Shown: one piece after another, positions 5,185-37,416 of the stretch
Position numbering within the stretch: the first letter of the stretch is position 1
Layout of the letters: every line of letters starts with the position of its first letter
Assembly: GCA_022710715.1 (NCBI GenBank)
Contig: JAKLGJ010000004.1
Coordinates: 166 to 64,165, forward strand
Source: Candidatus Omnitrophota bacterium
GTDB lineage: Bacteria; Omnitrophota; Gorgyraeia; Gygaellales; Profunditerraquicolaceae
Length of the DNA: 64,000 nucleotides
Reading direction: 5' to 3'
Notes under the pieces: model-generated
Told to the model about the DNA's origin: nothing
The model's database searches: none
The model's input: only the letters and a program-made list of their open reading frames with translations
Translations under genes and position numbers: made by a program

Positions 5185-5371
5185 TAATCTATTGAAAAGG
5201 GTTGACTTACCGGGTACACTTAAGTAGATACATTATCGATGTATGCTTTATTAAGAGCGTGTCCTACCGAAAAGGGCCTTAGTTGAAACAAGAGGCCAAA
5301 GCCACGGGGTCAGGGGGGGAACTTCCGAACAGGTAGCATAACCTCTCTATAGATTTTTGACTAACCGGGTT

Positions 5372-5403
5372 GCCGAAGAGGATAAGGCAATTCGGTTTTT
5401 TTA
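5372..5403 (+). terminator. Hairpin (GCCGAA-N13-TTCGGT) followed by a U-tract, 14 nt upstream of the start of the large surface-protein gene
   Basis: Stem-loop plus TTTTTTTATTT. It could terminate the aroK unit or attenuate entry into the downstream gene. Confidence 0.4.
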
Positions 5404-5416
5404 TTTAGGACATAAA

Positions 5417-7999
5417 ATGAAAAATCAGCGTTTAAACCAGATAATCCGGAAAGTTACTTCAGCCCTGCTGGTCCTGATTTTCTCTCTTTCAGAGATTATC
5501 GGGATTGGAGCAGGAGAAGCGCTGGTTTACGATTTCCTGGGTCAAATCGGTGATTTTGCTTTACCTTCAGCCCAGGCTGCCCTGGATAGTGGATATAGCA
5601 GTTCGATCCCCAGCGGTTATTTCAGTTCTGTAACTTCTTCCACGTCAAGTTTTCCAACCGTATCATCAACCGTATCATCCGGGTCTTCTTATAGCTTTCA
5701 GAGTCCCAGTACAGTCATGGCTAGAGCGAATACCGAGTTTAGCTCTTCCAGCTATTCTAATTCTTTCGCCGCATCTTATGGCTCGACTATTCCCAGTACA
5801 GCGTCATTATTAAGCAGGTTCAGTGGCACTGAATCAGGCTTCAATGTAAGTGCCACTTCAACCAGCCCGGTTACCGCCTCTTCAAGTTTCACCAATCTGG
5901 TGGGGCAGAATTACCAGAACAATCAGGTTAATTTCCAGTCTTTATTAAACAACTATTCTGCTGAATCTTCACCGCTCCAATTCCGGTCTTTGGAAAGCCG
6001 TTTTTCTTCCGAATACACACCAATCCAATTCCGGAATTCTACCTCTGAAACTCCTTTTCAGAGCCTGGTTTCGCAGAATTATGCTGATCTTCGCTCTACT
6101 TTGGCGGCCCAGTATGCGGCTGAATCTTCCTGGTATTCCAACCCTTTGAATCCCAGTTCCCAGAGTTCGACTACCGGTTCAACAGGTTCCACCACTGCAC
6201 CCGGTTCTGTTTATCAGACCAGTTCGTTTTCAGATCTAATATCTCGATTTTCCAGTACTTATTCCGAATTTGCCAGCAATCCCCGGTTTCAGTTTACCGA
6301 TTACACTGCTACTTCCAGCCTTGTTTCACGCTTTACCACAAGTTCCGATACGTCTTCTACCAGCTCTTCATTGCTTTCCCGGCTTATATCTTCAACAACA
6401 ACCGGAACTCTAACTGGTACGGCTACCACCGGAACTTCCAGCAATAACGCCACTGCGCCCAGCACACAGAATTACACTTCTACTCATACTGTGGCTACGC
6501 CCAGCCCTGCGGTTGCGGTCCAAACAGCCAATACCACACAATCCGCGGCTAACGCTCCGGCTTCGCAAAGATCTGCCGGTTCACCGATCGTGGATGGGAG
6601 AGTGCAGGGTAAGAGCGCGATGACTGTCAGCGGTACAACGGCGGCACTATCCGGGGGGGTTAATTCGATTCTGTATAATCCGGGGATCAACAGCCAGTTA
6701 CCCGCAGAATATAACAAATTATTGACCGTTAACGGCAGCCGCTCACTGGTGGAAAACGGGGTCGTGGCTACAGAGAACCAGATGGTGGAAGTCGGTCCGC
6801 GCACTGCCCGGGATTTATTGATTGCCCGCCAGTCCCGCGCAGCGGAATCAGTAGCCGGCGATAATGTCCTGGTCGAAGCAGCGAACGCGTCTGCCGAACA
6901 GCCTCTTTTTAAAGCCAATTTATTGAACGCTAATCCTGCTACCGGTGATTTTACGGCCAAGAATGACTGGCAGGCTTATAAGAATCAGATCGATATAGTC
7001 AAGCAGAAGAATAATGACATCAAATTATCGGAATTATTGAAGAATTCACTCACCCCGTTGATGAAATCGCCGCTCGCCAACAAGCTTATGAACGGTTTAA
7101 TGGAAGTTTGCAGTGATGTACGCATGCCGTCATCCAGAAAAACATTTGATACGGATACGTTGCCGCCGTTACCCCGGCAAACGAATGATAAAGAAAGCAT
7201 CAGCGCTCATTCTAAAGAGAAGGGTATCATTGCCCAGGATTACCACGCACAATCCAGCCCGATCAATCCGGTTACTCAATTCATAGATTATACTCGACCG
7301 GTCAGTGATTATCTGATCAAAAACGGTTTGTCTCCGCCGGGCGGGAACATTTTATTTTCCTCTCTTCCCGCTTCAAATAACCGTATCACCACCTCATCCG
7401 AAGATAAAAACAGTCGGCTCGAGTCTTTGCCGCTGATTTATTCCTCTGGTAATTCCTCCACGCTTGATTCAAACAAAAATTCCATTGCCTTCACTAATGT
7501 TTCTCATTCGAATTCAATCAGTTCTATAGATTGTTTCTCCCCCAGGGCCCTGACGACTTCACGTGTTGGGGCCCTCCCCCTGACAGACCAGCCCGTTACC
7601 GGGCATAAAAATAGCGAAAGCGTAGATTGTTTCTCCCCCAGGGCCCTGACGACTTCACGTGTTGGGGCCCTCCCCCTGACAGAACAGCCCGTTACCGGGC
7701 ATAAAAATAGCGAAAGCGTAGATTGTTTCTCCCCCAGGGCCTTGGTGACTTCAGTTGCCAGGGCCCTCCCCCTGACAGAACAGCCCGTTACCGGGCATAA
7801 AAATAGCGAAAGCGTAGATTGTTTCTCCCCCAGGGCCTTGGTGACTTCAGTTGCTAGGGCCCTCCCCCTGACAGACCAGCCCGTTACCGGGCATAAAAAT
7901 AGCGAAAGCGTAGATTGTTTCTCCCCCAGGGCCCTGACGACTTCACGTGTTGGGGCCCTCCCCCTAAACCATTGTAACCAAGGAGGCAGCAATGTGTAA
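5417..7999 (+). CDS. Large Ser/Thr-rich signal-anchored (secreted or surface) protein with five C-terminal 32-aa tandem repeats
   Basis: N-terminal hydrophobic anchor (ALLVLIFSLSEIIGIGAG). About 600 aa of low-complexity S/T/Q-rich sequence with degenerate FQS/RFSS motifs. The C-terminus is DCFSPRALTTSRVGALPLTDQPVTGHKNSESV x5. Start taken at the ATG at 5417 (MKNQRL...). Confidence 0.75.
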   Translation: MKNQRLNQIIRKVTSALLVLIFSLSEIIGIGAGEALVYDFLGQIGDFALPSAQAALDSGYSSSIPSGYFSSVTSSTSSFPTVSSTVSSGSSYSFQSPSTVMARANTEFSSSSYSNSFAASYGSTIPSTASLLSRFSGTESGFNVSATSTSPVTASSSFTNLVGQNYQNNQVNFQSLLNNYSAESSPLQFRSLESRFSSEYTPIQFRNSTSETPFQSLVSQNYADLRSTLAAQYAAESSWYSNPLNPSSQSSTTGSTGSTTAPGSVYQTSSFSDLISRFSSTYSEFASNPRFQFTDYTATSSLVSRFTTSSDTSSTSSSLLSRLISSTTTGTLTGTATTGTSSNNATAPSTQNYTSTHTVATPSPAVAVQTANTTQSAANAPASQRSAGSPIVDGRVQGKSAMTVSGTTAALSGGVNSILYNPGINSQLPAEYNKLLTVNGSRSLVENGVVATENQMVEVGPRTARDLLIARQSRAAESVAGDNVLVEAANASAEQPLFKANLLNANPATGDFTAKNDWQAYKNQIDIVKQKNNDIKLSELLKNSLTPLMKSPLANKLMNGLMEVCSDVRMPSSRKTFDTDTLPPLPRQTNDKESISAHSKEKGIIAQDYHAQSSPINPVTQFIDYTRPVSDYLIKNGLSPPGGNILFSSLPASNNRITTSSEDKNSRLESLPLIYSSGNSSTLDSNKNSIAFTNVSHSNSISSIDCFSPRALTTSRVGALPLTDQPVTGHKNSESVDCFSPRALTTSRVGALPLTEQPVTGHKNSESVDCFSPRALVTSVARALPLTEQPVTGHKNSESVDCFSPRALVTSVARALPLTDQPVTGHKNSESVDCFSPRALTTSRVGALPLNHCNQGGSNV
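7529..7966. repeat. Direct tandem repeat, 96-bp unit x about 4.5 copies, more than 90% identical, inside the coding sequence
   Basis: Unit starts at 7529, 7625, 7721, 7817 and 7913. Copies differ only in a short TTGGTGACTTCAGTTGC versus CTGACGACTTCACGTGT segment. Confidence 0.95.
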
Positions 8000-19107: not shown

Positions 19108-19259
19108 GCAAACGCTTCCAGAAATATTTTTTATCTCCTTGCAAAAGATAACGTTGCGTAGTATATTTTATACATGCGCAGCGGCGTTCCCTGCTGCGGT
19201 ACCGGGTCTGCAGTATGTCAGGGTCAGTGGTTTTTTTGTACCGTGCGAGGTAGACTGGA

Positions 19260-22200
19260 ATGATTTTACTTTTTATCCTCGGCACAGTTATTGTGCTGGG
19301 CGTTGCGGCAATCCTCTATGTAACCTCTCCTTCACAGGAAACTTCCGGTAAGGTCGATCCGGCAGCCATGCCTGACCTGCAGCTGAAAGATCAGAAAATC
19401 GGCAAGCTTGAACAGCAGCTCAATGCGATCAGGATCGATACGGATAAGATGCGCGCGGAACACGCCGCTCTCCAGAAGGCGCTCGAGACTGCGCAGAAGA
19501 CGGAAGCCGATGCCAAAAGCGAACTTGCCCGAAGGAAAGAATGGGACGGCAAGAATGACGAGATGTTCAACAAGCTCAAGAAAGACGTGCAGGAGCTTAA
19601 AGAACAACTGCACGCCAAAGAGCGCGATCTTACCGCTGAATTCTCCAAGAATGTCGAATTGACCCGCCAGATACGCACGCTGGATTCCCAGATCGAACAA
19701 TTGACCAAAGAGACCAAGGCTAAATCCGAAGACCTGGAACGTTTGAAGCATCAGATCAACGGGTACGTGAAAGTTCTGCAGGATACCAAAGCCGAATCCC
19801 AGATGCATCAAAAGACCATCGCCGATATGAAGCTGCAGCAGGAACAGAGCGAATGGGTCCCTAAAAAAGAATTCCAGAAACTCAACGATGAATATTCGCG
19901 GCTGGAAGAAGAGCTGGAAGAAAAAGATAAAGAATTGGAGTTGCGGGAAGACAAGATCCGCCAGATCTATCAGGAAAGACTGCGCCTGGAAGCGCAGTTG
20001 AAAGAGGGCGGCAGCCCTGCTGCGGCAGCCGCACCGCCCGCCGCGCCGGTTGAACCCGAGCCTGTCAGTGCGCCGCCCGCAGAGCCGGTCGTTGCACCGC
20101 CTGTTCCTGAACAGGCGGCGGCTGCGCAACCGCCGGCAGAACCGGTTATTCCTGCAGAGCCGGTTGTTCCCGCAGAACCGGTTGTTCCTTCAGAGCCGGC
20201 ACCGCCGGAAGCCGCGCAGAATACCGCGTCCGGTGTAGATGAGTCTGTGGCACCGGTTGAGCCGGTGGCGCCGCAAGAGGAAATCGTCATTCCGGACCTG
20301 CACCTGGAAAAAGTACGCAACATCGGGATTATGGCGCATATCGATGCCGGAAAAACCACCACCAGTGAGCGTATTCTATACTATACCGGCAAATCCCATA
20401 AGATCGGCGAGGTTCACGACGGCAAGGCCCAGATGGACTGGATGAAGCAGGAGCAGGAGCGCGGGATCACTATTACCGCCGCTGCCACGACCTGTTTCTG
20501 GAAGGAGTATCGCATCAACATCATCGATACTCCCGGCCATGTGGATTTTACCGCGGAAGTGGAACGCAGTTTGCGCGTGCTCGACGGAGCAGTGGCAGTG
20601 TTCTGCGCGGTGGGAGGGGTGCAACCGCAGTCCGAGACCGTCTGGCGCCAGTCCGACAAATACCATGTCCCCAAACTCGCTTTCGTCAATAAGATGGACC
20701 GCACCGGCGCGGATTTCTTTGCCGTGGTTGCGGACATGGAAAAGATGCTGCAGGCGCACGTGGTGCCCCTGCAGATCCCTATCGGGGCTGAAGATACGTT
20801 CAAAGGCGTGGTCGACCTGCTGGAGATGCAAGCGTATGTCTATACCGAAGAAGACGCCACCGGAAAGAATTTCAAAGTGGAGGAAGTGCCTGCGGATCTG
20901 CTGGAGAAGGCTAAAGAGTGCCGCCGCGTGATGGTGGAAAAAAGCGCGTCGATGGATGACGCGTTGACCCATAAATTCCTGGAGAACGCCGAGAGCATAA
21001 CCCCCGAAGAAATAAAAGCGGCTTTGCGCAAAGGGACAGTGGCCAATAAAATCGTGCCGGTGCTCTGCGGCGCATCGTTCAAGAATAAAGGCGTGCAGAA
21101 ACTGCTCGACGCCGTGATCGATTATCTGCCGTCGCCGATCGACGTGCCGGCAGTGGAGGGCCGTGATCCTGAAAACAGCGAGGTCGTGGTGCCGCGGCAT
21201 CCCGACGCACATGAGCCGCTGGCTGCTCTGGCTTTCAAAGTGCAATCCGATCCGCACATGGGCAAGCTGATCTACGTGCGGATCTATTCCGGCGTATTGC
21301 GCGCGAGCACGTACGTGTTGAACTCCACCAAGAACAAGCGCGAGCGCATCGGCCGGATCTTCCTGATGCATGCTAATCAGCGCGAGCCGCGCGACCGGGC
21401 GTATGCCGGAGAGATCGTCGCGGTCATCGGTTTGACCGATACGATTACCGGCCATACATTATGTGATCCGGAGCATCCGGTTTTGCTGGAAGCGATACAA
21501 TTCCCGGTGCCGGTGGTCTCGTTGAGCATTGCCGCCAAGACCCGCGCGGATCAGGATAAACTGGGCAAAGCCCTGGCGCGCCTGTCCGACGAAGACCCCA
21601 CTTTCAGCGTGGAGACCAATGAAGAGACCCAGGAAGTCATCTTGAGCGGTATGGGCGAGTTGCACCTGGACGTTCTGGTCGACCGGATGAAAACGGAATT
21701 CGGCGTAGACGCGGTAGTCGGCCAGCCCAAAGTCGCTTTTCGCGAGACGATCCAGGGCACGGTCAAAGAAGAGTACAAACATGTCAAACAATCCGGCGGC
21801 CGCGGTCAGTACGGCCATGTTGTTTTTGAAATGAGCCCCGGCGAACCGGGCAAAGGGTTGCAGTTTGTCGACGCCATAAAAGGCGGCGCCATTCCCAAAT
21901 CCTATATGCCCGCTATACAAAAGGGCTTGCTGGAAGCGATGCGCAAAGGAGTGATCGCCGGCTATCCGGTAGTGGACGTGAAAGTCGTGCTGGTGGACGG
22001 CTCCTATCATGACGTCGATTCCTCGGAATTAGCCTTCAAACTCGCCGCTATCGGAGGGTTCAAGAGCGGTTTCGTTAAAGCCAATCCGGTCTTGCTTGAA
22101 CCGAGCATGTCTCTGGAGGTGACCACTCCCGAAGAGTTCGTCAATACCATTATCGGCAATATCTGTTCCCGTCGCGGTAAAGTGCTGGGCATGGAGACAA

Positions 22201-22385
22201 AAGGCAACCAGAAGATCGTCGACGCGGAAGTGCCGCTTTCAGAAATGTTCGGTTATGTTTCCACGTTCCGCTCCTTATCCAGCGGCCGGGCCAGCGGGAA
22301 TATGGAATTTTCCAAATATACCCAGGTCCCCGCGGAAATCGCCGCCAAGATCATCGAAGAGAAGAAGCAGCAGAAGCAGGAATAG
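19260..22385 (+). CDS. fusA: Elongation factor G (all five domains) fused in-frame to a ~335-aa N-terminal extension: transmembrane helix, coiled coil and a Pro/Ala/Glu-rich linker
   Basis: Residues ~340-1041 align colinearly with EF-G: [37 protein letters not shown] and [12 protein letters not shown]. Residues 1-335 are a hydrophobic helix ([21 protein letters not shown]), a ~230-aa heptad-like K/E/Q/L-rich segment and PAEPVVP repeats. There is no stop codon and no convincing internal start or RBS before the EF-G part. Confidence 0.85.
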
Positions 22386-22410: not shown

Positions 22411-22439
22411 TTGACATCCACACAAATGTGTGGTATGCT
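22411..22439 (+). promoter_or_regulatory. lexA promoter (TTGACA-N17-TATGCT) with a 7-N2-7 inverted repeat CCACACA-AA-TGTGTGG (22418-22433) in the spacer, a candidate LexA operator
   Basis: Consensus -35, good -10, and a perfect inverted repeat between them. The lexA ATG at 22447 lies 8 nt after the -10 element, giving a leaderless transcript. Confidence 0.5.
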
Positions 22440-22446
22440 CATTCCG

Positions 22447-23052
22447 ATGGTCACTTTATCTGCCAAACAAAAACAGGTGCTGGAGTTCATCCGGCAGAAA
22501 ATTTACGGAGAGCATTGTGCGCCTACGATCCGCGAGATCGCGGGGCGTTTCGGCTTTTCTTCCACGGGCACGGTGCGGGATTATCTCAAGGCGCTGCAGA
22601 AAAAAGGCTATGTGGCTGTATCTGCATCGAAGGCCCGGGCCATTGTATTGACCGATGCCGCGGCAGGCATCCCGCTGGTAGGAAGAGTTGCGGCCGGCCG
22701 GCCGCAACTGGCGCTGGAGGATGTCGAGGGATATCTGCGCCCCGATGAGCTTCTGGGCCCGACAGGTGCCGGCGATGCTTCGGCGTTGTTCGCTTTGCGG
22801 GTGAAGGGCGAGAGCATGACCGGTAAAGGGATCCTGGATGGAGATACGGTGATCGTGCGGCGTCAGTCCCGGGCAGACGATGGCGATATCGTGGTCGCTC
22901 TCATCGCCGATGAAGCCACGGTCAAGACCCTGCGCCGCAGGCATAACCGATTGCTGCTGGAGCCGGCCAATTCCCGCTATAAGCCGATTGCCTGCGATGA
23001 GAATACCGCTATTATCGGAAAGGTTATCCGGGTGTTACGAAACTATGTTTAA
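22447..23052 (+). CDS. lexA: LexA repressor (SOS regulator, S24 peptidase)
   Basis: N-terminal wHTH (LSAKQKQVLEFIRQ...PTIREIAGRFGFSSTGTVRDYLKALQKKGYV) and a C-terminal S24 domain with GESM and the Lys region. Start chosen by alignment to LexA N-termini. Confidence 0.9.
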   Translation: MVTLSAKQKQVLEFIRQKIYGEHCAPTIREIAGRFGFSSTGTVRDYLKALQKKGYVAVSASKARAIVLTDAAAGIPLVGRVAAGRPQLALEDVEGYLRPDELLGPTGAGDASALFALRVKGESMTGKGILDGDTVIVRRQSRADDGDIVVALIADEATVKTLRRRHNRLLLEPANSRYKPIACDENTAIIGKVIRVLRNYV

Positions 23053-23323
23053 TCCGCATGCCCGCTGGGACAGAAAGCTTCCCTGCGCCGATCCCGACGC
23101 TGCCGAGACGGTTGAGGTATGCGCCCGTTTTCTCAAGGGCAAGGTTATCCCGCTGTACTTTACCGTGAGCGGCAGCAGGATTGCCGTCAAGCGCATCAAT
23201 TATTCCTGGCAGGAGCGCAAGGGTAACGTCATCCTGCGTTACTTCAGCGTGGCTGATGCCGGCGATACCTATTGTTTATGTCTCGACCCCGAGACCATGA
23301 TCTGGCGTTTATGGAACCCATAA
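23045..23323 (+). CDS. Small hypothetical protein (92 aa) within the lexA-dinB operon
   Basis: ATG overlaps the lexA stop (ATGTTTAA) and the ORF ends inside the dinB start region. No domain recognised. Confidence 0.45.
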   Translation: MFNPHARWDRKLPCADPDAAETVEVCARFLKGKVIPLYFTVSGSRIAVKRINYSWQERKGNVILRYFSVADAGDTYCLCLDPETMIWRLWNP

Positions 23324-24471
23324 TCCTGCATATGGACATGGATGCTTTTTTCGCGTCGGTCGAACAGGCCACCACTCCGCGGCTTGCGGGTAAGCCTTTG
23401 ATCGTAGGTTCCCGCGGCAGAAAGAATAATACCGTGGTGGCAGCCTGCTCGTATGAAGCCAAGGCTTTTGGCGTCGAGTCCGGCATGCCCACCTGGCGCG
23501 CTTTCAAGCTCTGCCCCCATGCGGAGTTTGTCAGCGCCGATTCGGGAAAATACCTGTATACCGCGCATGCTATCTTTGAGATGCTCAAGCGTTATTCGCC
23601 GCAGGGGGAAATGGCGTCGATAGACGAGTTCTATCTTGATTTGAGCAACGATACGCTGTGCGCTGCGGAGCGGATTGCCGTCGGGATCAAAGAGCAGATC
23701 CGCCGGGAGTTTCACATCACCTGTTCCATCGGTATCGCGCCGGCAAAGATCATCGCTAAGATCGCCGCCAAAGCGCATAAACCCGACGGGCTGGTAGTGC
23801 TGGAGGAGAAAGATGTCCCGCGTTTTCTCGAGGAACTGCCGGTAGGAAAAGTTCCGGGCATCGGGCCCCGCCTTCAGGAGCATCTGCACGGCATGTCGAT
23901 ATTCAACTGCGGCCAGTTAGCCGGTTTGTCCGAAGCGTTCCTGGTGCAGCGTTTCGGCAAAGCCGGCGTGTGGCTGTATGAAACAGCGCATGGCCGGGAT
24001 TCCAGCGAGGTGGGGTATTGGGCCCAACCGGAACTGCCGCCCAAATCCGTCAGCCATTCCTATACCCTGGAAAAAGAACTGTATCGCCGCGATGCCGTCC
24101 TGGCCTGGATACGCATGCTCTGCGAGATGGTCGCTTACCGTTTGCGTAAAGACAGCCTGGAATCCCGGGGAGTGCAGCTCTATCTGCGGGGCAGCGCCGG
24201 AGCGTTCAGCCGGCAGAAAAGTTTCACTGTCGCTGTTTCCGATGCGCAGGCGCTTTACCGCCGCAGCCTGGCGATACTGGAGAGTTTCCCGGCTAAACGT
24301 CTTTCTTGCCGGGCCCTGGGCGTATGCGCTTTTTCGCTCTCCGGCGCTCAAGAGCTCTGTTTGTTTCCCGAAGACCGGAAGCAGAACCGGCTGATCCGGG
24401 CAGTGGACCGGATCAACGAGCGTTTCGGGGAATGGTCCATTTATCCGGCAGTAATAGCCATTACGCGATAA
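23311..24471 (+). CDS. dinB: DNA polymerase IV (Y-family)
   Basis: ILHMDMDAFFASVEQ N-terminus, SIGIAPAK and the little-finger region. Confidence 0.9.
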   Translation: MEPIILHMDMDAFFASVEQATTPRLAGKPLIVGSRGRKNNTVVAACSYEAKAFGVESGMPTWRAFKLCPHAEFVSADSGKYLYTAHAIFEMLKRYSPQGEMASIDEFYLDLSNDTLCAAERIAVGIKEQIRREFHITCSIGIAPAKIIAKIAAKAHKPDGLVVLEEKDVPRFLEELPVGKVPGIGPRLQEHLHGMSIFNCGQLAGLSEAFLVQRFGKAGVWLYETAHGRDSSEVGYWAQPELPPKSVSHSYTLEKELYRRDAVLAWIRMLCEMVAYRLRKDSLESRGVQLYLRGSAGAFSRQKSFTVAVSDAQALYRRSLAILESFPAKRLSCRALGVCAFSLSGAQELCLFPEDRKQNRLIRAVDRINERFGEWSIYPAVIAITR

Positions 24472-29321: not shown

Positions 29322-29437
29322 AGACAGGGGGAATATCCACAGAACCACCGGTCTCCGTAAAGCTTAAGGAGAAGCAAAAGTGCTTGGGATTTTTAGGGTT
29401 CGGCGGTATAATGATGGGTTAAAAGGTGCACGATACC

Positions 29438-30466
29438 ATGGATCTGACCAACTATTTCCTTGAACTGGTAACGGATAAGCGCAAAGGTTTTTTTGCCGCT
29501 TTAATCTCGTTTTTACTCTATTTGCTCTCCCTGCTCTATGGCCTGGCAGTGCGTTTCCTGGCTTTTTTCTACGCGATCAATCCCTATCGGGCCTCCTGTA
29601 AAGTGATCGGCGTGGGTAATATTACCCTGGGCGGTACCGGTAAGACTCCGCTGGTGGAATGGCTCGCCCGGTATGTGCGCTCGCAAAGAAAGAAGACGGC
29701 GATACTTACCCGGGGTTATGGCGGCGGGGATGAGCCGGCGATGCTGGCCGCGAAGCTGCCCGACGTTCCGGTGCTGGTGGATAAAGACCGGGTCAAGACT
29801 ATACGGCGGGCGATAAAGGATCATGGCGTGGATGCGGTTATCCTTGATGACGCTTTTCAACAGTGGCGCATTATCAAGGATTTGAATATTCTCACCATCG
29901 GCGTTGATCAGGGTTTTGGGAATCGGCATCTGCTTCCCCGGGGCGTGCTGCGCGAACCGCTTTCGGCGCTTACACGCGCCGATGTTTTTGTGCTGCATCA
30001 GGCCGGCCAGGCGCAGGATACAGCGACGTTGAGGTCGTTCTTGTCCCGGATTAACCCCCGCGCGGAAATTGTGGAGACCGCACTGGTGCCTACGGAGATC
30101 TTCCGATTGAATGCCGCCGGGCATCGGCTCGAACCCGGGATACTCAAAGGCAAGAGAGCCGGCGTTTTTTCCGGCATCGGCAATCCCGCGGCTTTTGAGC
30201 AGACGGTACGCGGTCTGGGAACCGCAGTGGCAGCGGTATACCGGTTCCGGGATCACCATATCTATACGCCCGCGGATATCAGCGTCATGCGTCAGGAGGC
30301 TCGCTCTCTCGATCTATTGATCACCACTGAAAAAGACGCGGTACGTTTCCCCGCGACGCTGGCGGCGGATCTGCCGTGCGCAGTGTATGTCGTGGCCGCA
30401 GAGATGAGAATAACGAACAATGAACAGGGATTCCGTCACCGATTATCTGGGTTGTTTGCTACTTAA
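29438..30466 (+). CDS. lpxK: Tetraacyldisaccharide 4'-kinase
   Basis: VIGVGNITLGGTGKTP P-loop and the LpxK length. Confidence 0.9.
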   Translation: MDLTNYFLELVTDKRKGFFAALISFLLYLLSLLYGLAVRFLAFFYAINPYRASCKVIGVGNITLGGTGKTPLVEWLARYVRSQRKKTAILTRGYGGGDEPAMLAAKLPDVPVLVDKDRVKTIRRAIKDHGVDAVILDDAFQQWRIIKDLNILTIGVDQGFGNRHLLPRGVLREPLSALTRADVFVLHQAGQAQDTATLRSFLSRINPRAEIVETALVPTEIFRLNAAGHRLEPGILKGKRAGVFSGIGNPAAFEQTVRGLGTAVAAVYRFRDHHIYTPADISVMRQEARSLDLLITTEKDAVRFPATLAADLPCAVYVVAAEMRITNNEQGFRHRLSGLFAT

Positions 30467-32366
30467 ATCCGCCGGCCCGTGTTTGCGGTTATTGCCGGTT
30501 GGTTTTGTTTTCTGGCTCGGCCGCCGGCTGGGGGATCTGGTGCATTTCTTTGACGCCAGGCATCGCACGCTGGTATACGCCAACTTGAAGACCGCTTTCG
30601 GCGGCACGCTGTCGCTTGCTGCGTTGCGCCGGATAACGCATGCTTTCTACCACAGCTTCGGCCAGAACATCATGGAGATTTTTCTCATCCCCCGGATCGA
30701 CCGGCGGTATGTCGATCGGTATATTACCATTGAGGGCAAGGAGAACATTGAAGCCGCTTTCCATAACGGCAAAGGCGTGATCTTCGTTTCGGTGCACGCC
30801 GGCAGCTGGGAATTATCCAATATCCTGTCCGCGAACCTCGGAGTGCCTTTCTGGATGTTTGTCCGGGAGCAGAAGCTTCCCCGTTTGAACCGGGTACTCA
30901 ACGAGTATCGCCGGCAGAGAGGGTGCCGTCTCCTGCAGAAAGAAAATCAGCTGCGTGAAGTGATCCGGGTGCTCAAGAGCAACGAAGCGATCGGGATGAC
31001 GCTTGACCAGGGAGGAAGAGACGGATTGCCGGTTGATTTCATGGGCCGGTCCGCGTCCATGGCTTACGGAGCGGTGCGGCTGGCGCTCAAATACGGCGCT
31101 GCGGTCGTTCCGGTATTTTCCACCCGTTTGCGGGGACCCCGGATCAAGATGATCATTCAACCGCCGGTTGTGCTGCAGCGCAGCGGCGACGAAGAAAAAG
31201 CGGTGCGCGATAACCTGCAGTCGCTGGTGCGGATATTCGAAGAGTATATCCGCCGGTATCCGCAGGAGTATCTCTGGTCCTATCGGATCTGGAAATATTC
31301 CGTCTGGCGGGAAGTGTTGATTGTAAGCGACGGAAAGACCGGTCATCTGCGCCAGTCGCAGGCTCTGGCGCAGCTGGTGAGCCGGCACTATCAGGCCAGA
31401 CAGATACAGACGCGTATGCGCACGGTTGAGGTGCGCTTTCGCGCGCCCCTCGTTAAGATGCTTCAGGCCTGCAGCAGTCTGTTTTCGAACCGGTTGACCT
31501 GTCCGGGATGTCTGCAGTGTTTGCGCCGGGCAGTCGATCCGGCGACGTTCCAACAGCTCTGCGGGGTCCGACCGGACATCATTATTTCCTGCGGCTCAAG
31601 CGTGGCGCCGGTGAATGCGTTGCTTGCCCGGGAGAATCAGGCCAAATCCCTGGCCATCCTCAAACCCGCTTTTCTGGATTTCAAGAAGTTCGATCTGGTG
31701 GTCATGCCGGAACACGACCATCCGGCGCGCAGGAAGAATGTGGTGGTAACGCAGGGCGCGCTCAATCTTATTACGCCGGAGTATCTGCGCGAACAGTCCG
31801 ATCAGCTTTCACCGCTGCTTGCCGCGCCGCCGGGGCAGGACGCGTGCATCGGCGTATTGCTGGGAGGCGACACCAAGCAATTCCGTCTTCCGCCGCAGAC
31901 GGTCCGGACAGTTCTGGAGCAGGTCAGGCAGTCCGCCGAAGCGCTCAATGTTTCTTTACTGGTAACAACGTCCCGCAGGACGTCGGCGCCCGTGGAAGCC
32001 GTAGCCAGGGAGGTTCTGGGCCGGGAAGAGCGCTGTAAACTGCTGGTGATCGCTAACGAACGCAATATTCCTGCTGCGGTAGGCGGTATTCTGGGAATGA
32101 GCCGGATAACGGTCGTTTCTCCGGAAAGTATCTCTATGATTTCCGAAGCGGCAAGCAGCAAGAATCATGTGATTGTTTTTACCGCTCCCGGGTTGAGCGC
32201 CCGGCATCAGACGTTTCTGCAGTCCTGTGCCGAAAAAAAATACATCTATCTGGCTGAACCGGACGAGGTATCCGGGGTCATCGCGATGATCCGGGCGCGC
32301 CAGCCGCAGACCGTGGCTTTACCCGATGCTCAACGGGTCAGTCAAGCGTTAGAAAGCGTGTTATGA
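30420..32366 (+). CDS. Lipid A late acyltransferase (LpxL/HtrB family) fused to a C-terminal ELM1/DUF1022-like domain
   Basis: The N-terminal 300 aa match the lipid A biosynthesis acyltransferase family (HAGSWE-type region, LDQGG). The C-terminal 340 aa (VLIVSDGKTGH...GVLLGGDTKQF...) resemble the ELM1 (mitochondrial fission ELM1 / DUF1022) family. Confidence 0.75.
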   Translation: MNRDSVTDYLGCLLLKSAGPCLRLLPVGFVFWLGRRLGDLVHFFDARHRTLVYANLKTAFGGTLSLAALRRITHAFYHSFGQNIMEIFLIPRIDRRYVDRYITIEGKENIEAAFHNGKGVIFVSVHAGSWELSNILSANLGVPFWMFVREQKLPRLNRVLNEYRRQRGCRLLQKENQLREVIRVLKSNEAIGMTLDQGGRDGLPVDFMGRSASMAYGAVRLALKYGAAVVPVFSTRLRGPRIKMIIQPPVVLQRSGDEEKAVRDNLQSLVRIFEEYIRRYPQEYLWSYRIWKYSVWREVLIVSDGKTGHLRQSQALAQLVSRHYQARQIQTRMRTVEVRFRAPLVKMLQACSSLFSNRLTCPGCLQCLRRAVDPATFQQLCGVRPDIIISCGSSVAPVNALLARENQAKSLAILKPAFLDFKKFDLVVMPEHDHPARRKNVVVTQGALNLITPEYLREQSDQLSPLLAAPPGQDACIGVLLGGDTKQFRLPPQTVRTVLEQVRQSAEALNVSLLVTTSRRTSAPVEAVAREVLGREERCKLLVIANERNIPAAVGGILGMSRITVVSPESISMISEAASSKNHVIVFTAPGLSARHQTFLQSCAEKKYIYLAEPDEVSGVIAMIRARQPQTVALPDAQRVSQALESVL

Positions 32367-34477
32367 ACATACTTCAGGTTTTACCGGAATTGCGTGTGGG
32401 AGGCGTCGAGCGGGGAACCGTTGACCTGGCTAAATACCTGGTTAAAATGGGGCATAAGGCGGTCGTGGTTTCCGCCGGAGGGGAGATGGTCAAGGATCTC
32501 GAAGCCCTGGGCGCTATCCATTATCAGCTGCCGGTGCATAAAAAATCGATCATCGATATGCTCAAGGTTGTGCCGCGACTTGAGGAAATCATCAAGAAGG
32601 AGAATATCGATATCGTTCATGCCCGATCGCGCATTCCCGCCTGGTCGGCGTTTCTGGCCAGTCGCCGGACCCAGCGGGTATTTATTACCACCTGCCACGG
32701 ATATTATACCAAGCACCTGTTCAGTTACGTCATGGGCTGGGGCAAGAAGGTCATTGTTTTGAGCAATGTCATTGCCCGGCACATGATCGAAGATTTCGGC
32801 GTGCCGCATGAGCGGATCCGTTTGATCCCGCGCAGCGTTGATAGTGAACGTTTCAGCTTTGTTCCTCCGTCGAAACGCAAGCACCGGGAATATAATATCG
32901 GCATTATCGGGCGTTTGACGCCGATCAAAGGACATCTGTATTTCCTCAAGGCCATGGCGCGCGCAGCGCGCATCATGCCAAAGCTCAAAATCTGGATAGT
33001 CGGTGACGCTCCTGCTTCCAAGGAGGCGTATAAAGAACAGATGCGGGTGTTGACCCGCCGGCTGGGGCTGTGGCATTGCACGGAATTCCTGGGCGCGCAA
33101 AAAGATATTCCTGAAATCATGCAGCATCTTGACGTGCTGGTGCTGGCGACTACTACTCAGGAGGCGTTCGGCCGGGTGATCGTGGAAGCGCAGGCGGCGG
33201 GAGTGCCGGTGGTGGCCACCAGCGTAGGAGGGGTTGTCGATATCATCGACGATGGGAAAACAGGATTGCTGGTCCCGCCGGCCGATCCGCAGGCGATGGC
33301 CGATGCAGTGGTACGTATCGGCAAAGACCCCGCGCTGGCCAATGCGCTCGCCGAACAGGCCTATGCGCGGGTCAAGGAGCGTTATGGCGTGGAGTTGATG
33401 GTGGAGCGGACGCTGGCGGTTTATCGCGAGGCTCTGGAGCAGACCAAGATTCTGGCGATCAAATTCAGTTCTCTGGGAGACATTATCCTTTCCACGGCGG
33501 CCGTGCGCGCGCTGCGCCAGCGTTTCCCCCGTCCGCGGTATTCCTTGAGCTTCCTGGTGGGAGCCGATTTCAAGGATATTCTACTGCGCAATCCCCATAT
33601 CGACGAGTTGCTGGTATGCGACTTCAAGAACAAGGATAAAGGGGTCAATGCGTTTACCCGCCTGGCTTCACTGCTGCGGCGCAAGCATTTTGACATGGTT
33701 ATCGATCTGCAAAACAACCGCCGCAGCCATCTTCTGGCGGCTTTGACCATGGCCTTGAAACGGTACGGGTATAATAATAAAAAATGGGGATTTTTGCTCA
33801 ACTACTCGGTAAAGGACGATGGCGCGGCTCTGGGGCCGGTGGAGCATCAGTTCCGTATCTTCAAACAGTTCGGGATGGACGCCGGGGCGGCAGCGCTGGA
33901 ATTGTTCCCTACCGCCGAAGATCAGAAATGCGTCGACGATTTTCTGGCTTCGCACTGGTTAAGCGCGCATCAGGTTGTTGTGGGCATCAACGCCAGTGCC
34001 AGCAAACGCTGGTCCAGCAAGGTCTGGCCGCGGGAGCATCTTATCCGGCTCTGCGAAGAACTCGGGCGGCGGGATATCCGGGTGGTGATCACCGGTACCG
34101 CAGATGACCGCTTTCTGGTGGAGCAGCTCCGGGTCACCGCTCCCGGGCTCAAGCTGATCGACAGCTGCGGCAAGTTGACCATCAACCAGCTGGCATGTTT
34201 GATCAAGCGCTGCCAGGTGTATATCTCCGGAGATTCGGCTCCCCTGCATGTCGCTGCGGCGATGGGCACGCCGTTTATCGCCCTCTTCGGGCCGACCGAC
34301 CCGCGCAGGCATTTGCCTCCTGCTTTGCAATGCGTGGTGATACATAAACAGCTCGGTTGCACCCCCTGTTATAAATCCAAATGCGCCCGGTTGAAATGCA
34401 TGAAAGCGATCACTGCCGAAGAGGTGCTCCGGGGGATAGATTCTTTGTTGTCATTATCGCAGGGTAAACGCCCATGA
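32363..34477 (+). CDS. Fusion of a GT4 glycosyltransferase (N-terminal) and a GT9 heptosyltransferase-like domain (C-terminal)
   Basis: N-terminus: GT4 fold with EAFGRVIVEAQAAGVPVVAT. C-terminus: ILAIKFSSLGDIILSTAAVRAL GT9 signature. Confidence 0.8.
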   Translation: MNILQVLPELRVGGVERGTVDLAKYLVKMGHKAVVVSAGGEMVKDLEALGAIHYQLPVHKKSIIDMLKVVPRLEEIIKKENIDIVHARSRIPAWSAFLASRRTQRVFITTCHGYYTKHLFSYVMGWGKKVIVLSNVIARHMIEDFGVPHERIRLIPRSVDSERFSFVPPSKRKHREYNIGIIGRLTPIKGHLYFLKAMARAARIMPKLKIWIVGDAPASKEAYKEQMRVLTRRLGLWHCTEFLGAQKDIPEIMQHLDVLVLATTTQEAFGRVIVEAQAAGVPVVATSVGGVVDIIDDGKTGLLVPPADPQAMADAVVRIGKDPALANALAEQAYARVKERYGVELMVERTLAVYREALEQTKILAIKFSSLGDIILSTAAVRALRQRFPRPRYSLSFLVGADFKDILLRNPHIDELLVCDFKNKDKGVNAFTRLASLLRRKHFDMVIDLQNNRRSHLLAALTMALKRYGYNNKKWGFLLNYSVKDDGAALGPVEHQFRIFKQFGMDAGAAALELFPTAEDQKCVDDFLASHWLSAHQVVVGINASASKRWSSKVWPREHLIRLCEELGRRDIRVVITGTADDRFLVEQLRVTAPGLKLIDSCGKLTINQLACLIKRCQVYISGDSAPLHVAAAMGTPFIALFGPTDPRRHLPPALQCVVIHKQLGCTPCYKSKCARLKCMKAITAEEVLRGIDSLLSLSQGKRP

Positions 34478-35592
34478 ATATACTCTATGTAACCACTCAT
34501 CTGAATATCGGCGGCATCACCAGCTATATCCTGACTCTGGCCAAAGGCTTCAAGAAAAGAGGCCACGCGGTTTATATCGCTTCCAGCGGAGGGGAGTGCC
34601 TGCCGAAGTTCACCGATGAAGGGATCGTGCATATCCCGATACCCATACGCACCAAGTCCGAAGCGCATCTGGTGAAACTGGGCTTGAGCCTGGTCCGGCT
34701 GAAGCAACAGGTCCGGGAAAAAGATATACAGCTGATTCACAGTCATACCCGGGTAACGCAGGTCCTGTGCACGCTGTTGGCTTCCCGCGCGCATATTCCG
34801 CACATCACCACCTGTCACGGATTTTTTAGGAACCGCATGTTCCGCCGGTTATACCCGTGCTGGGGGGACAGAGTGATTGCCATCAGCGATTCGGTCAAAT
34901 TCCATCTGATCGACGATTTTGGTTTGAAGGAATCGATGGTCCGGCTGGTCTACAGCGGGATCGATCTGGACCGGTTTATCATCCCGGCTGCGTCGGTACA
35001 GCGGGATAAGTATTCACTCAAACGCGCGCTGGGACTCGGGGGAGGGCCGGTTGTCGGGGCGATCGGCAGGTTATCCGATGTCAAAGGCTACCGTTATCTG
35101 GTGGAAGCGATGCCTGCGGTGCTCAAGTGTGTCCCCCAGGCGCAGTTGTTGATTGTCGGCGACGGCAGAGAATATTCCCACCTGGCGCGTCTGGCCGCCA
35201 GGCTGGGCATCGAAAAGAAAGTCACCTTTATCACCAAAGTATACGATACCGTCAAGGCGCTTTCGGTGATTGATGTATTTGCCATGCCTTCCTTGAAAGA
35301 AGGTCTGGGGTTGAGCCTGATGGAAGCGATGGCTGCGGGGCTGCCGTGTGTCGGCTCGGATATCGGCGGCATCCGGAATTTGATCACGCACCGGGAAAAC
35401 GGCCTGTTGGTGGAAGCGAAAAACAGCCCCAGGCTCGGCGAAGCGCTGGTGGAAGTGATCGAAGATGAAAAGCTGGCGCAGCGGCTGGGCGATACCGCGC
35501 GGACGTTCATCAACCACAATTTTTCGCAGGCCGAGATGCTCTTTCGGACAGAGGAGGTATACCGGGAATGTCTCAACAACGGACGCGGATAA
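34474..35592 (+). CDS. GT4 (group 1) glycosyltransferase
   Basis: EGLGLSLMEAMAAGLPCVGSDIGG motif; 372 aa. Confidence 0.85.
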   Translation: MNILYVTTHLNIGGITSYILTLAKGFKKRGHAVYIASSGGECLPKFTDEGIVHIPIPIRTKSEAHLVKLGLSLVRLKQQVREKDIQLIHSHTRVTQVLCTLLASRAHIPHITTCHGFFRNRMFRRLYPCWGDRVIAISDSVKFHLIDDFGLKESMVRLVYSGIDLDRFIIPAASVQRDKYSLKRALGLGGGPVVGAIGRLSDVKGYRYLVEAMPAVLKCVPQAQLLIVGDGREYSHLARLAARLGIEKKVTFITKVYDTVKALSVIDVFAMPSLKEGLGLSLMEAMAAGLPCVGSDIGGIRNLITHRENGLLVEAKNSPRLGEALVEVIEDEKLAQRLGDTARTFINHNFSQAEMLFRTEEVYRECLNNGRG

Positions 35593-36362
35593 TCAAACGG
35601 GCGGCGGTTATCGTCGCCGTTGTGGCGCTGATTGCTGGCGTGCTGTATGCGCGCGCCAAATACGTGCTGCCTATCGCTATGTATCATTCGGTTCAGCCGC
35701 AGGTCCCGGCGGGCAACCGTTTGATCGTTTCAACGCGCACCTTCGATCGCCAGATGGCATTTCTCAAAAAGCACCGGTACAACGTGCTTTCTCTTGAAGC
35801 GGCCGCCCGGATCCTCGCCGGCCACGCACGCATTCCTGCGCGGGCGGTGGTGTTGACGTTCGACGACGGCAATGAGGATAACTATATCTACGCGTACCCC
35901 ATTCTCAAGAAGTACGGATTGCCGGCCACGATATTCGTTATTGTGGAAGATATCGGCAAACCGGGCAGATTAACTTTGGCACAGATACGCGAAATGCGCG
36001 CTTCCGGTCTGGTTACATTCGGCAGCCATTCCCTCACGCATCCTTTTCTGGAACAGATCGATGATCCCGTCCGTTTGCACGCCGAGATAACCGGATCAAG
36101 AATACAGCTCGCGCAGCTGCTCGGCGAACCGGCGAACACTTTTTCCTATCCCTGCGGCAGGTTCAGCCCTACCGTCAGACAACTGGTGCAGGAAGCGGGG
36201 TACGCCGCGGCAGTAGTGACCAATCCGGGAAAGAATTGCGCCGATGATGATGTCTTCGCTCTCAAGCGACTGCGCATCTCCGAAAACGCCGCACACATGT
36301 TTATTTTCTGGGTAGAAATAAGCGGGTATTATAATGTCATACGGGAAAACCGTCATAAATAA
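35568..36362 (+). CDS. Polysaccharide deacetylase (CE4) family protein
   Basis: VVLTFDDGNEDNY NodB motif, an N-terminal transmembrane anchor and the HSxxH region. Confidence 0.85.
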   Translation: MSQQRTRIIKRAAVIVAVVALIAGVLYARAKYVLPIAMYHSVQPQVPAGNRLIVSTRTFDRQMAFLKKHRYNVLSLEAAARILAGHARIPARAVVLTFDDGNEDNYIYAYPILKKYGLPATIFVIVEDIGKPGRLTLAQIREMRASGLVTFGSHSLTHPFLEQIDDPVRLHAEITGSRIQLAQLLGEPANTFSYPCGRFSPTVRQLVQEAGYAAAVVTNPGKNCADDDVFALKRLRISENAAHMFIFWVEISGYYNVIRENRHK

Positions 36363-37416
36363 ACCTCCGGATACTCGTTTTCTCAACCAGCCCCGGCGTA
36401 TCGTGGTGTTCAATGTCAACTGGCTGGGGGACGTGGTTTTTTCTACCGCGGTCCTGCGTAACATAAAGTATAATTTCCCCGACGCGCATATCGCCTGTAT
36501 TATCCCGCCCCGCTGCCAGGCCGTGCTGGCCGGGAATCCACACCTTGATGAAATAATCCTGTTCGACGAACAGGGCAGGGAAAAAAGCCTGTGGGGTAAG
36601 ATCGCCTTCAGCCTGGCCTTACGGAAAAAGCGTTTTGATACCGCTTTCCTGCTGCACCGTTCGTTTTCCCGCGCGTTGATCGTTGCCGCAGCGGGGATAG
36701 CGCAGCGGGTGGGTTATTATACTTCCAAACGGGGATGGTTGTTGAGCCGCAGGATCATCGCTCCCGATCTATTGAGGGTTCACCGTATCGATTATTATCT
36801 CGGGGTGATTGCCGGCGCCGGGTTGGAGATCAAGGACCGGCACACGGAATTTTTTATTGCCTCCCGGGATGCCGAGTACGCACAACGTTTTCTCCGGGAG
36901 CAGGGTCTGGAGCGGTCCGGGGTTCTGGCGGCGATCAATCCCGGAGGTAACTGGGCGCCGAAGCGCTGGGCGAAAGAGTATTGGGCGCAGCTGGCCGAGC
37001 GGTTGATCAGCGAGTGCGGCATGCAGGTAATCATTACGGGCGGCGAACAGGATGCATCCCTGGCCGGGCAGATCCAGCAATTGATGGGCGCCGGACGGGT
37101 GATCAGCGCCTGCGGTAAACTGTCCCTGGGACAGTTTGCCGCGTTGTGCAAGCGGCTGCGTCTGTTCATCAGCGCCGATTCCGGACCATTGCACATCGCC
37201 AATGCCGCGGGGGCCGTCAGGATCATTGCGTTGTTCGGTCCGACCGCGCCGCTGCTTACCGGTCCGTATCCGGCTGACCGGGTCAGCGTTCTGCAGGAAG
37301 CGGTCGGTTGCACGATCCCCTGTTATCGGGTCGACTGTAACGATCATCGTTGCATGAACGCCATTACTCCGGAGAAAGTGATGCGGGCGGTTAAAACCTA
37401 TGTCCATCGCGGCTAA
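36334..37416 (+). CDS. GT9 ADP-heptose:LPS heptosyltransferase
   Basis: RIVVFNVNWLGDVVFSTAVLRNI N-terminal GT9 signature and C-terminal nucleotide-sugar fold motifs. Confidence 0.85.
   Translation: MSYGKTVINKPPDTRFLNQPRRIVVFNVNWLGDVVFSTAVLRNIKYNFPDAHIACIIPPRCQAVLAGNPHLDEIILFDEQGREKSLWGKIAFSLALRKKRFDTAFLLHRSFSRALIVAAAGIAQRVGYYTSKRGWLLSRRIIAPDLLRVHRIDYYLGVIAGAGLEIKDRHTEFFIASRDAEYAQRFLREQGLERSGVLAAINPGGNWAPKRWAKEYWAQLAERLISECGMQVIITGGEQDASLAGQIQQLMGAGRVISACGKLSLGQFAALCKRLRLFISADSGPLHIANAAGAVRIIALFGPTAPLLTGPYPADRVSVLQEAVGCTIPCYRVDCNDHRCMNAITPEKVMRAVKTYVHRG

Follow-up and report, generated by a model that had tools for sequence, protein, structure and literature searches.

Does a reading frame from the phylum Omnitrophota encode an elongation factor G (EF-G) that is held at the membrane, and, if it does, is this the organism's only EF-G or an additional, specialised one? 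The question is raised by a stretch of 64,000 nucleotides (nt) from a Candidatus Omnitrophota bacterium (assembly GCA_022710715.1, contig JAKLGJ010000004.1, positions 166 to 64,165), hereafter called the window, in which the open reading frame (ORF) 19260–22385 on the plus strand runs for 1041 codons from an ATG at 19260 with zero internal stops, just as a preliminary description of the letters alone had read it. The reading that we favor, with a probability of about 0.55, is that a canonical-type EF-G is carried on a signal anchor, a stalk and a linker, and that it serves membrane-engaged ribosomes as a specialised extra copy.

A canonical EF-G fused to an N-terminal module

The C-terminal part of the protein (residues 347–1036) scores 1042.4 bits with the NCBIfam EF-G equivalog TIGR00484, whose cutoff is 659.4, in a match that spans positions 5–690 of the 691 in the model, and the five EF-G domains (G with G′, II, III, IV, and V) all score above the Pfam cutoff between residues 351 and 1029. 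The expected motifs are found at residues 359 (AHIDAGKTT, the P-loop), 423 (DTPGHVDF, switch II with the catalytic His), 477 (NKMD), 845 (SGGRGQYGH), and 917 (HDVDSS), and in an alignment of 58 long homologs, as we call the fused forms, motifs G1–G4 and both domain IV tip loops, the loops that reach the decoding center, are invariant. End-to-end alignments of the EF-G part score 867 bits with E. coli EF-G and 862 bits with Thermus thermophilus EF-G, while the scores drop to 567 bits with mitochondrial EF-G1, to 481 with mitochondrial RRF2/EF-G2, and to 390 with T. thermophilus EF-G-2. AlphaFold predicts a confident EF-G fold, for which Foldseek returns TM-scores of up to 0.94 to solved EF-G structures (S. 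aureus EF-G). The models of related translational GTPases stay below their cutoffs for this protein: the EF-G2/EFG II models NF009377 and NF058620 give 505.7 and 492.5 bits where 890 and 1000 are needed, the Tet(M)/Tet(O)-type ribosomal protection family gives 376.6 where 775 is needed, and the RF3, LepA and BipA models all fall short as well. By sequence, predicted fold and motifs, the C-terminal 700 residues belong with canonical EF-G (EFG I), and the preliminary description's view of a full EF-G with all G-domain and domain IV/V signatures is upheld by Pfam, TIGR00484 and the motif positions. With its motifs complete, the EF-G part is apparently active, and ribosome-dependent GTPase activity, translocation and recycling dependent on the ribosome recycling factor (RRF) are predicted for it.

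The 345 residues ahead of the EF-G part are made up of a hydrophobic helix, a short spacer, a coiled-coil stalk and a linker (Table 1). The helix at residues 2–21 has a Kyte-Doolittle mean of 2.97 and is present in both AlphaFold models, and a transmembrane (TM) helix with a mean above 1.6 is found in 114 of 122 long homologs. Lysine and arginine residues flanking this helix average 5.2 after it and 0.1 before it over the long homologs, and from this family-wide bias we infer that the C-terminal bulk of the protein is cytoplasmic (N-out/C-in), an orientation that is also consistent with the need of EF-G for GTP and ribosomes. Between residues 41 and 240, hydrophobicity recurs every 3.5 residues with a power of 2.85, compared with 0.17 ± 0.17 in shuffled sequences, and 0 of 2000 shuffles reach 2.85. 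The AlphaFold model of the N-terminal module (N-module) gives a continuous helix over residues 41–196 with predicted local distance difference test (pLDDT) values of 90–98, a kink at the invariant SEWVP, and a further helix over residues 202–246. By helix geometry the stalk would be about 30 nm long if extended, and its heptad periodicity suggests that it is probably oligomeric. The preliminary description had given the first ~335 residues a TM helix, a ~230-residue coiled coil and a proline-rich linker; the periodicity and AlphaFold bear out all three parts, but the coiled coil is about 200 residues long and not about 230.

Conservation within the stalk is concentrated in a few motifs. Across 44 modules the residues E198, W199, P201, K202, F205, L208, N209, E211 and E216 are invariant (SEWVPKxEFNKLNEEY), and the 58 full-length proteins together with the 44 modules reveal further invariant or near-invariant positions in KEKELxxEFxKNVxL (around residues 120–132) and KHxIE (around residue 164). 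At the first of the two conserved tryptophan motifs the full-length AlphaFold model has a local dip in pLDDT and a break in the helix. No Pfam or NCBIfam family matches the N-module above its cutoff, and the matches below threshold are to generic coiled-coil proteins such as SMC, Rad50, crescentin and ATG16.

The linker (residues 241–345) is composed of 26% proline, 23% alanine, 14% glutamate, and 14% valine, with a net charge of −14, and its length across the family ranges from 50 to 146 residues with a median of 77. A linker that is long, disordered and variable in this way could belong to a pro-protein or storage form, in which cleavage of the linker, either constitutive or signalled, frees a soluble EF-G and the membrane form acts as a reservoir; stand-alone modules, described below, also end in similar E/K/P-rich tails. 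The linker, however, has no conserved cleavage motif, conservation is loose at the junction that precedes the G domain, and no cognate protease is conserved nearby in a neighborhood that is variable overall; the idea is purely speculative, and we regard it as very improbable.

The distribution of the fused form shows that the long EF-G is a real, phylum-wide fusion. Among 5.8 billion proteins, the best 120 matches are all 1001–1172 residues long and mostly cover 92–100% of the query, and all of those inspected begin with a hydrophobic helix, after which a K/R cluster and a coiled coil usually come. When one genome per species was scanned, 80 loci were obtained, nearly all labelled Candidatus Omnitrophota and 2 of them complete chromosomes, of which about 76 have the full-length fused ORF, and some 36 further long forms from metagenomes are among the matches listed. 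The window protein itself occurs in identical form on 10 contigs, including a 1.62-Mb contig of the Joint Genome Institute (JGI). The preliminary description had preferred a real fusion to two genes and had asked whether homologs in related genomes are also fused to EF-G, and the more than 120 clusters and ~76 species-level genomes with this architecture decide both points in its favor.

An artefactual joining of a membrane coiled-coil gene and fusA across a low-complexity repeat might be suspected from the 18-nt tandem repeat in the linker, and from two loci (L122 and L133) whose frames are broken near the junction. The comparative data refute it. The same fusion recurs in over 120 clusters, and the ~76 independent genomes in which it is found come from a large number of studies and assemblers. 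The identical protein is found on those 10 contigs, and the apparent splits at L122 and L133 are 1-nt homopolymer frameshifts within an otherwise colinear fused gene. In addition, a start codon preceded by a Shine-Dalgarno (SD) sequence is a rarity in the 30 codons before the G domain, where an in-frame ATG, GTG, or TTG of this kind is found in 3 of 77 genes and is in no case ATG; this agrees with the statement of the preliminary description that no plausible start or ribosome-binding site precedes the EF-G part. Misassembly and the two-gene reading were both rejected on these grounds. An internal start that would yield a soluble EF-G from the same gene was rejected too, there being no conserved internal start with an SD sequence among the 77 genes and no promoter-like site near the junction. 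Carriage by a mobile or viral element found no match in IMG/VR.

The N-module as a protein of its own

Profile searches recovered complete stand-alone modules of 261–378 residues (P0245–P0261), in each of which a TM helix and a coiled coil precede an E/K/P-rich tail. The genes of P0251 and P0245 lie directly after TrkH-...-pheT-rarA, with P0251 then followed by PPIase-UvrD-DUF5981-NifU-5FTHF, and the long EF-G fills the same slot (pheT-rarA-[gene]-PPIase-UvrD-DUF5981-NifU) in 15 other genomes, for example at locus L015. The stand-alone modules are 55–79% identical among themselves and 41–47% identical to the syntenic long forms, and this degree of mutual identity indicates a long-lived state rather than a recent truncation. 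The N-module is evidently an unannotated membrane coiled-coil family that would have a function independent of EF-G, and the distribution suggests that it was formerly an autonomous membrane protein, which survives alone in one lineage. The best explanation of the fused form is that EF-G was joined to the C-terminus of this stalk family early in the phylum Omnitrophota. Since the EF-G moiety has been lost in that one lineage, its genomes must have another EF-G. No phylum-wide conserved neighborhood of the long EF-G was found: the only recurrent one is the pheT-rarA-[gene]-...-NifU arrangement at 15 loci, which offers no functional hint.

The autonomy of the module brings up the possibility that the module is the functional core of the fusion, as a scaffold of the envelope, the division apparatus or a membrane skeleton, and that EF-G is attached as a ribosome-docking adaptor and not as a turnover factor. 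In favor of this are the conservation of the module alone, with its invariant Trp motifs and its persistence without EF-G, the independent existence of a distant family of about 225 residues with a TM helix and a coiled coil, and the consideration that oligomerisation, if it occurs as seems probable, would make the EF-G heads multivalent. The invariant GTPase motifs, switch regions and domain IV tip loops, on the other hand, favor full catalytic cycling over mere binding, and the module has no Pfam match and no known partner or function; a scaffold with an EF-G adaptor is therefore improbable in our estimate.

Several related proteins were encountered in these searches. The distant family comprises proteins of ~210–235 residues in which a TM helix is followed by a coiled coil that ends in E(S/T)WVAKxEYxKLEK (L168 8001–8684, and also P0259 and P0351–P0400); clustering at 50% leaves at least 30 representatives, and the conserved slot of the family reads hybrid histidine kinase, Hpt, ..., TPR protein, [gene], aminotransferase. 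Short ORFs with a TM helix and a coiled coil, which match only module-profile positions 1 to 100–190, lie a few kb from a short or long EF-G gene at three loci (L081 14417–15010, L035 14020–14904, and L032 6437–6958). Finally, P0231, a protein of 1029 residues from a 4.5-kb NCBI contig, has an EF-G domain that falls within the clade of short EF-Gs discussed below and is 82% identical to P0205, and its N-module is a divergent variant (ESGWVSKEDYNRLEE). The sequence of P0231 suggests an independent fusion or a recombination between paralogs, and its pairing of a divergent module with a short-clade EF-G implies that fusion and loss have been dynamic.

Additional copy or principal EF-G

The str operon rpsL-rpsG-fusA-tuf is the context that marks the original fusA, and EFG-I-type genes that lie outside it are usually additional copies (PMC3150367). 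When E. coli S12, S7, and EF-Tu were used as queries, none of the three was found within ±10 kb at any of the ~130 Omnitrophota-type loci examined, with long and with short EF-G alike, in a scan whose positive control recovered S12-S7-EF-G(-EF-Tu) at all 30 EF-Gs of other phyla. The position of the window gene outside the str operon, as given in the preliminary description, is thus a property of every Omnitrophota locus examined. A candidate Omnitrophota str operon (L149) was set aside, as the N-terminus of its S12 is Gram-positive-like in our judgement. A preprint on 176 complete Omnitrophota genomes describes several chromosomes with S12-S7-EF-G-EF-Tu-S10-L3 (bioRxiv 10.64898/2026.06.07.730766).

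At three loci, L047 (the complete chromosome CP070797.1), L055, and L080, the long EF-G has a separate, short EF-G of 697–704 residues upstream of it, at a distance between a few hundred and ~1,850 bp. At L110, where the end of the locus truncates an N-module ORF, there is a short-type EF-G match at ~9 kb from this ORF. The short forms make up at least 120 clusters and were always stand-alone in the dozen or so contexts checked. The single-cell match P0235 was dropped as a case of joint occurrence within a single genome, because its single amplified genome (SAG) differs from that of L079. One of the genomes that carry a short EF-G also encodes, at L082 20790–22097, a 1617-residue SMC protein into which an intein with a LAGLIDADG endonuclease is inserted. 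If the statement of the preprint is correct, a third, operon-borne EF-G exists in addition to the short and the long form, and Omnitrophota may have up to three distinct EF-G genes, all annotated alike.

In their EF-G domains the two forms are close to one another, with a median identity of 77% among short forms, 71% among long forms, and 68% between short and long, and of 57–59% to E. coli EF-G. Only 4 positions are class-specific, all of them conservative, and the EF-G part accordingly bears no sequence sign of functional divergence. In a neighbor-joining (NJ) tree rooted on E. coli alone, the short forms are one clade nested among deep-branching long forms; the internal branches of this tree are 0.002–0.02 long, which is so short that the branching order, and with it the choice between fusion first and loss first, is unreliable.

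We favor, by a modest preference, an extra and specialised copy over a principal or only EF-G, on four grounds taken together: one lineage has lost the EF-G moiety, short and long genes stand in tandem in some genomes, the preprint describes an operon-borne EF-G, and EFG-I-type genes outside the str operon are usually additional copies (PMC3150367). In the alternative, all elongation and recycling in these very small cells would be the work of the anchored protein, as the organism's main or sole canonical EF-G; the long leash would be nearly irrelevant for its access to ribosomes, and the module would serve some other end, such as partitioning, stoichiometry control or scaffolding. An identity of ~57–59% to E. 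coli EF-G is what would be expected of an ordinary ortholog from another phylum, the TIGR00484 cutoff is passed by a wide margin, the function-critical residues are invariant, and long forms stand at the base of the rooted tree, although with branches of 0.002–0.02 the outgroup may attract the faster-evolving long forms. A sole EF-G is difficult to reconcile, however, with a lineage that has kept the module without the EF-G moiety and so needs another EF-G, with the short and long forms that stand together on one complete chromosome, with the EF-G of the S12-S7-EF-G-EF-Tu operon (bioRxiv 10.64898/2026.06.07.730766), or with the usual standing of EFG-I-type genes outside the str operon as additional copies (PMC3150367). 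It is in our view doubtful, about half as probable as the reading we favor or less, that the tethered protein is the principal canonical-type EF-G in most Omnitrophota including this genome, or that it is dedicated to elongation and processivity on membrane-docked ribosomes engaged in making the phylum's giant membrane-anchored and secreted proteins (10,000–147,000 residues). If either were true, elongation would be spatially organised by the membrane anchoring of a core factor.

For the specialised, tethered extra copy, the following scheme may be envisaged. The N-terminal helix would insert N-out/C-in as a signal anchor, the stalk would oligomerise and project ~30 nm from the membrane, and the disordered linker would add perhaps 10–30 nm of flexible reach, so that the EF-G head might cycle on and off ribosomes inside that shell, within a few tens of nm of the membrane. 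The tethered pool would then serve ribosomes working at the membrane in translocation and, with RRF, in recycling, and the most plausible benefit would be a high local concentration of EF-G for membrane-engaged ribosomes. EF-G can carry an N-terminal fusion without a steric obstacle to ribosome binding, as is shown by the engineered L9-EF-G chimera, which occurs in a ribosome complex in crystals (PDB 4wpo). Omnitrophota are reported to encode many proteins of 10,000–147,000 residues, and TM helices or signal peptides are present in 94% of the catalogued ones (bioRxiv 10.64898/2026.06.07.730766). Synthesis of such giant proteins would hold ribosomes at the membrane for very long times.

A number of points count against this scheme and against an additional copy more generally. 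Long forms outnumber short forms by about 5 to 1 among the listed Omnitrophota-type matches to a short-form query, from which it follows that the short form is not a general partner of the long form, and the excess is what one would expect if the long form were the main EF-G. No second EF-G is present in the 64-kb window, and among the short-form matches listed there is none on the 1,620,792-bp contig. The str-operon EF-G of Omnitrophota is the statement of one preprint and was seen at no locus that we fetched. With regard to the membrane, the 20 residues that follow the TM helix in the window protein have 3 K/R and 4 D/E and are not net positive, so that the positively charged, cytoplasmic side proposed in the preliminary description holds at the level of the family (5.2 and 0.1 K/R) but does not hold for the flank of the window protein itself. 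The membrane insertion, topology, expression and activity of the tethered EF-G are all predictions from sequence, and its link to giant membrane proteins is circumstantial. An Omnitrophota cell is ~200–300 nm across, and in a cell of this size a leash of 30–60 nm would restrict EF-G very little.

Surroundings, known counterparts and significance

The features of the gene are collected in Table 1. A consensus scan for promoters returned 3 sites where 1.7 are expected, and the site at 19139–19167 is therefore weak and suggestive at most. As the preliminary description had it, and as the annotation of the neighbors confirms, the gene lies between a nitroreductase gene upstream and lexA downstream.

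Table 1. Elements of the tethered EF-G gene and its upstream region, in window coordinates
Feature	Position	Strand	Basis
Promoter-like site TTGCAA-17-TATATT, ~93 nt upstream of the start codon	19139..19167	+	Consensus scan
Shine-Dalgarno-like GAGG, 9 nt before ATG	19247..19250	+	Direct sequence reading
Whole ORF, predicted membrane-tethered EF-G, 1041 aa, ATG start	19260..22385	+	ORF reading, domain and homology matches
N-terminal transmembrane helix (aa 2-21), signal-anchor type, predicted N-out/C-in	19263..19322	+	Kyte-Doolittle, AlphaFold
Juxtamembrane spacer, short, disordered (aa 22-40)	19323..19379	+	pLDDT <50 in both AlphaFold models
Heptad coiled-coil stalk (aa 41-240), conserved core of N-module	19380..19979	+	Periodicity test, AlphaFold, conserved columns
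First conserved Trp motif (aa 92-105), consensus RRxEWVxKxEExLNK	19533..19574	+	Alignments; W95 invariant or nearly so
Second conserved Trp motif (aa 197-216), helix kink at SEWVP	19848..19907	+	44-module alignment; kink 197-201 in both models
Acidic Pro/Ala/Glu/Val-rich disordered linker (aa 241-345)	19980..20294	+	Composition, pLDDT 31-43
Tandem repeat (18 nt x 3.6) in linker, coding for the (P)AEPV(V/I)P units	20136..20199	+	Tandem Repeats Finder
G domain including G' (aa 351-625)	20310..21134	+	PF00009, 1.9e-66; GTP_EFTU
Domain II (aa 654-735)	21219..21464	+	PF22042, PF03144
Domain III (aa 748-821)	21501..21722	+	PF14492, EFG_III
Domain IV (aa 823-942), tip loops SGGRGQYGH (845), HDVDSS (917)	21726..22085	+	PF03764, EFG_IV
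Domain V (aa 944-1029)	22089..22346	+	PF00679, EFG_C

Directly 3′ of the tethered EF-G gene, an SOS-type cassette (22435–24471) encodes LexA (205 residues), a 92-residue ORF without a Pfam match, and a translesion polymerase of the IMS/DinB type, and a strong promoter-like site with an upstream TG (TTGACA-17-TATGCT, 22411–22439) overlaps the lexA start. Elsewhere in the window, a lipopolysaccharide (LPS)/lipid A cluster at 29426–39448 includes LpxK, a 648-residue protein combining lipid-A-acyltransferase with Elm1, a 704-residue fusion of GT4, GT1, and GT9 (heptosyltransferase), and a second GT9 protein of 682 residues. A 709-residue protein (41329–43458) joins an MshEN domain, which is a c-di-GMP-binding domain, to a T2SSE secretion/pilus ATPase and a C-terminal response-regulator receiver. 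On the minus strand, at 157–2070, lies a Ski2-like DEAD-box helicase with a DSHCT (NUC185) domain, an architecture that is commoner in eukaryotic and archaeal Ski2/Mtr4 and in actinobacterial HelY. An 880-residue ORF on the main coding strand (5357–7999) has no Pfam match at E ≤ 1e-5.

The closest comparators of the window protein are other EF-Gs. With canonical EF-G (fusA of E. coli and T. thermophilus) it shares the same five domains, the fold, the G motifs and the tip loops, and it differs from it in its 345-residue N-terminal extension of TM helix, coiled coil and linker, and in that the S12-S7-EF-G-EF-Tu context was not encountered at the loci examined. Like the long form, which in at least some genomes coexists with another EF-G, extra EFG-I copies such as P. 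aeruginosa EF-G1B are located outside the str operon, but these are soluble proteins of ~700 residues that have neither a membrane anchor nor a coiled coil (PMC3150367, PMC3832671). In the case of spdEFG1/spdEFG2 of Spirochaetes, Planctomycetes and deltaproteobacteria, and of mitochondrial EF-G1/EF-G2, translocation and recycling are split between two EF-Gs (PMC3150367). These pairs are a precedent for two EF-Gs that share labor, though the window protein is far closer to canonical EF-G and has no sequence sign of such a split.

The N-terminal extension has its nearest parallels in design outside translation factors. In RNase Y and EzrA of Firmicutes, an N-terminal TM anchor leads into a cytoplasmic coiled coil and then a functional domain, and the window protein resembles them in this logic, by which a single anchor and a helical stalk keep a soluble-type domain, enzymatic or binding, at the membrane; the sequences are unrelated, however, and the cargo of the window protein is a translation GTPase. 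The likeness to TolA and TonB, in which an N-terminal TM anchor is followed by an extended helical and/or proline-rich spacer, is superficial, as these proteins span the periplasm, whereas the bulk of the window protein is cytoplasmic as predicted from the charge bias, and Pfam found no TolA or TonB C-terminal domain in it. The L9-EF-G chimera (PDB 4wpo) is comparable as an N-terminal fusion that still binds the 70S ribosome, though it is artificial, has a ribosomal protein as the fusion partner and is without a membrane anchor.

In the searchable literature (full text), no description of a membrane-anchored EF-G or of an Omnitrophota EF-G fusion was found. The two systematic surveys of EF-G and translational GTPase (trGTPase) diversity do not mention "transmembrane," and Atkinson 2015 does not mention "membrane" or "coiled" either; where the preprint uses "membrane-anchored," it refers to the giant proteins and not to EF-G (bioRxiv 10.64898/2026.06.07.730766). 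Within this literature the statement of the preliminary description that a membrane-tethered EF-G has not been described therefore stands. It had also considered that fused homologs might turn out to be widespread and already annotated: they are widespread, but the databases label them plainly "elongation factor G," and no description of the fusion came to light. The membrane-tethered canonical EF-G of Omnitrophota is apparently undescribed so far, and we know of no report that a core elongation factor is anchored to the membrane in any bacterium.

EF-G is regarded as a freely diffusing and universally soluble protein, and a version that is anchored throughout a phylum and yet retains all of its catalytic features would be a natural experiment on the spatial organisation of translation. 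It may bear on how ribosomes are arranged in ultra-small, host-dependent cells, and on how they remain productive over the very long synthesis of giant envelope proteins. The stand-alone module defines an unannotated family, and its fusion to EF-G points to a functional link of this family with the ribosome. Lastly, the annotation "elongation factor G" in Omnitrophota hides at least two, and perhaps three, different genes.

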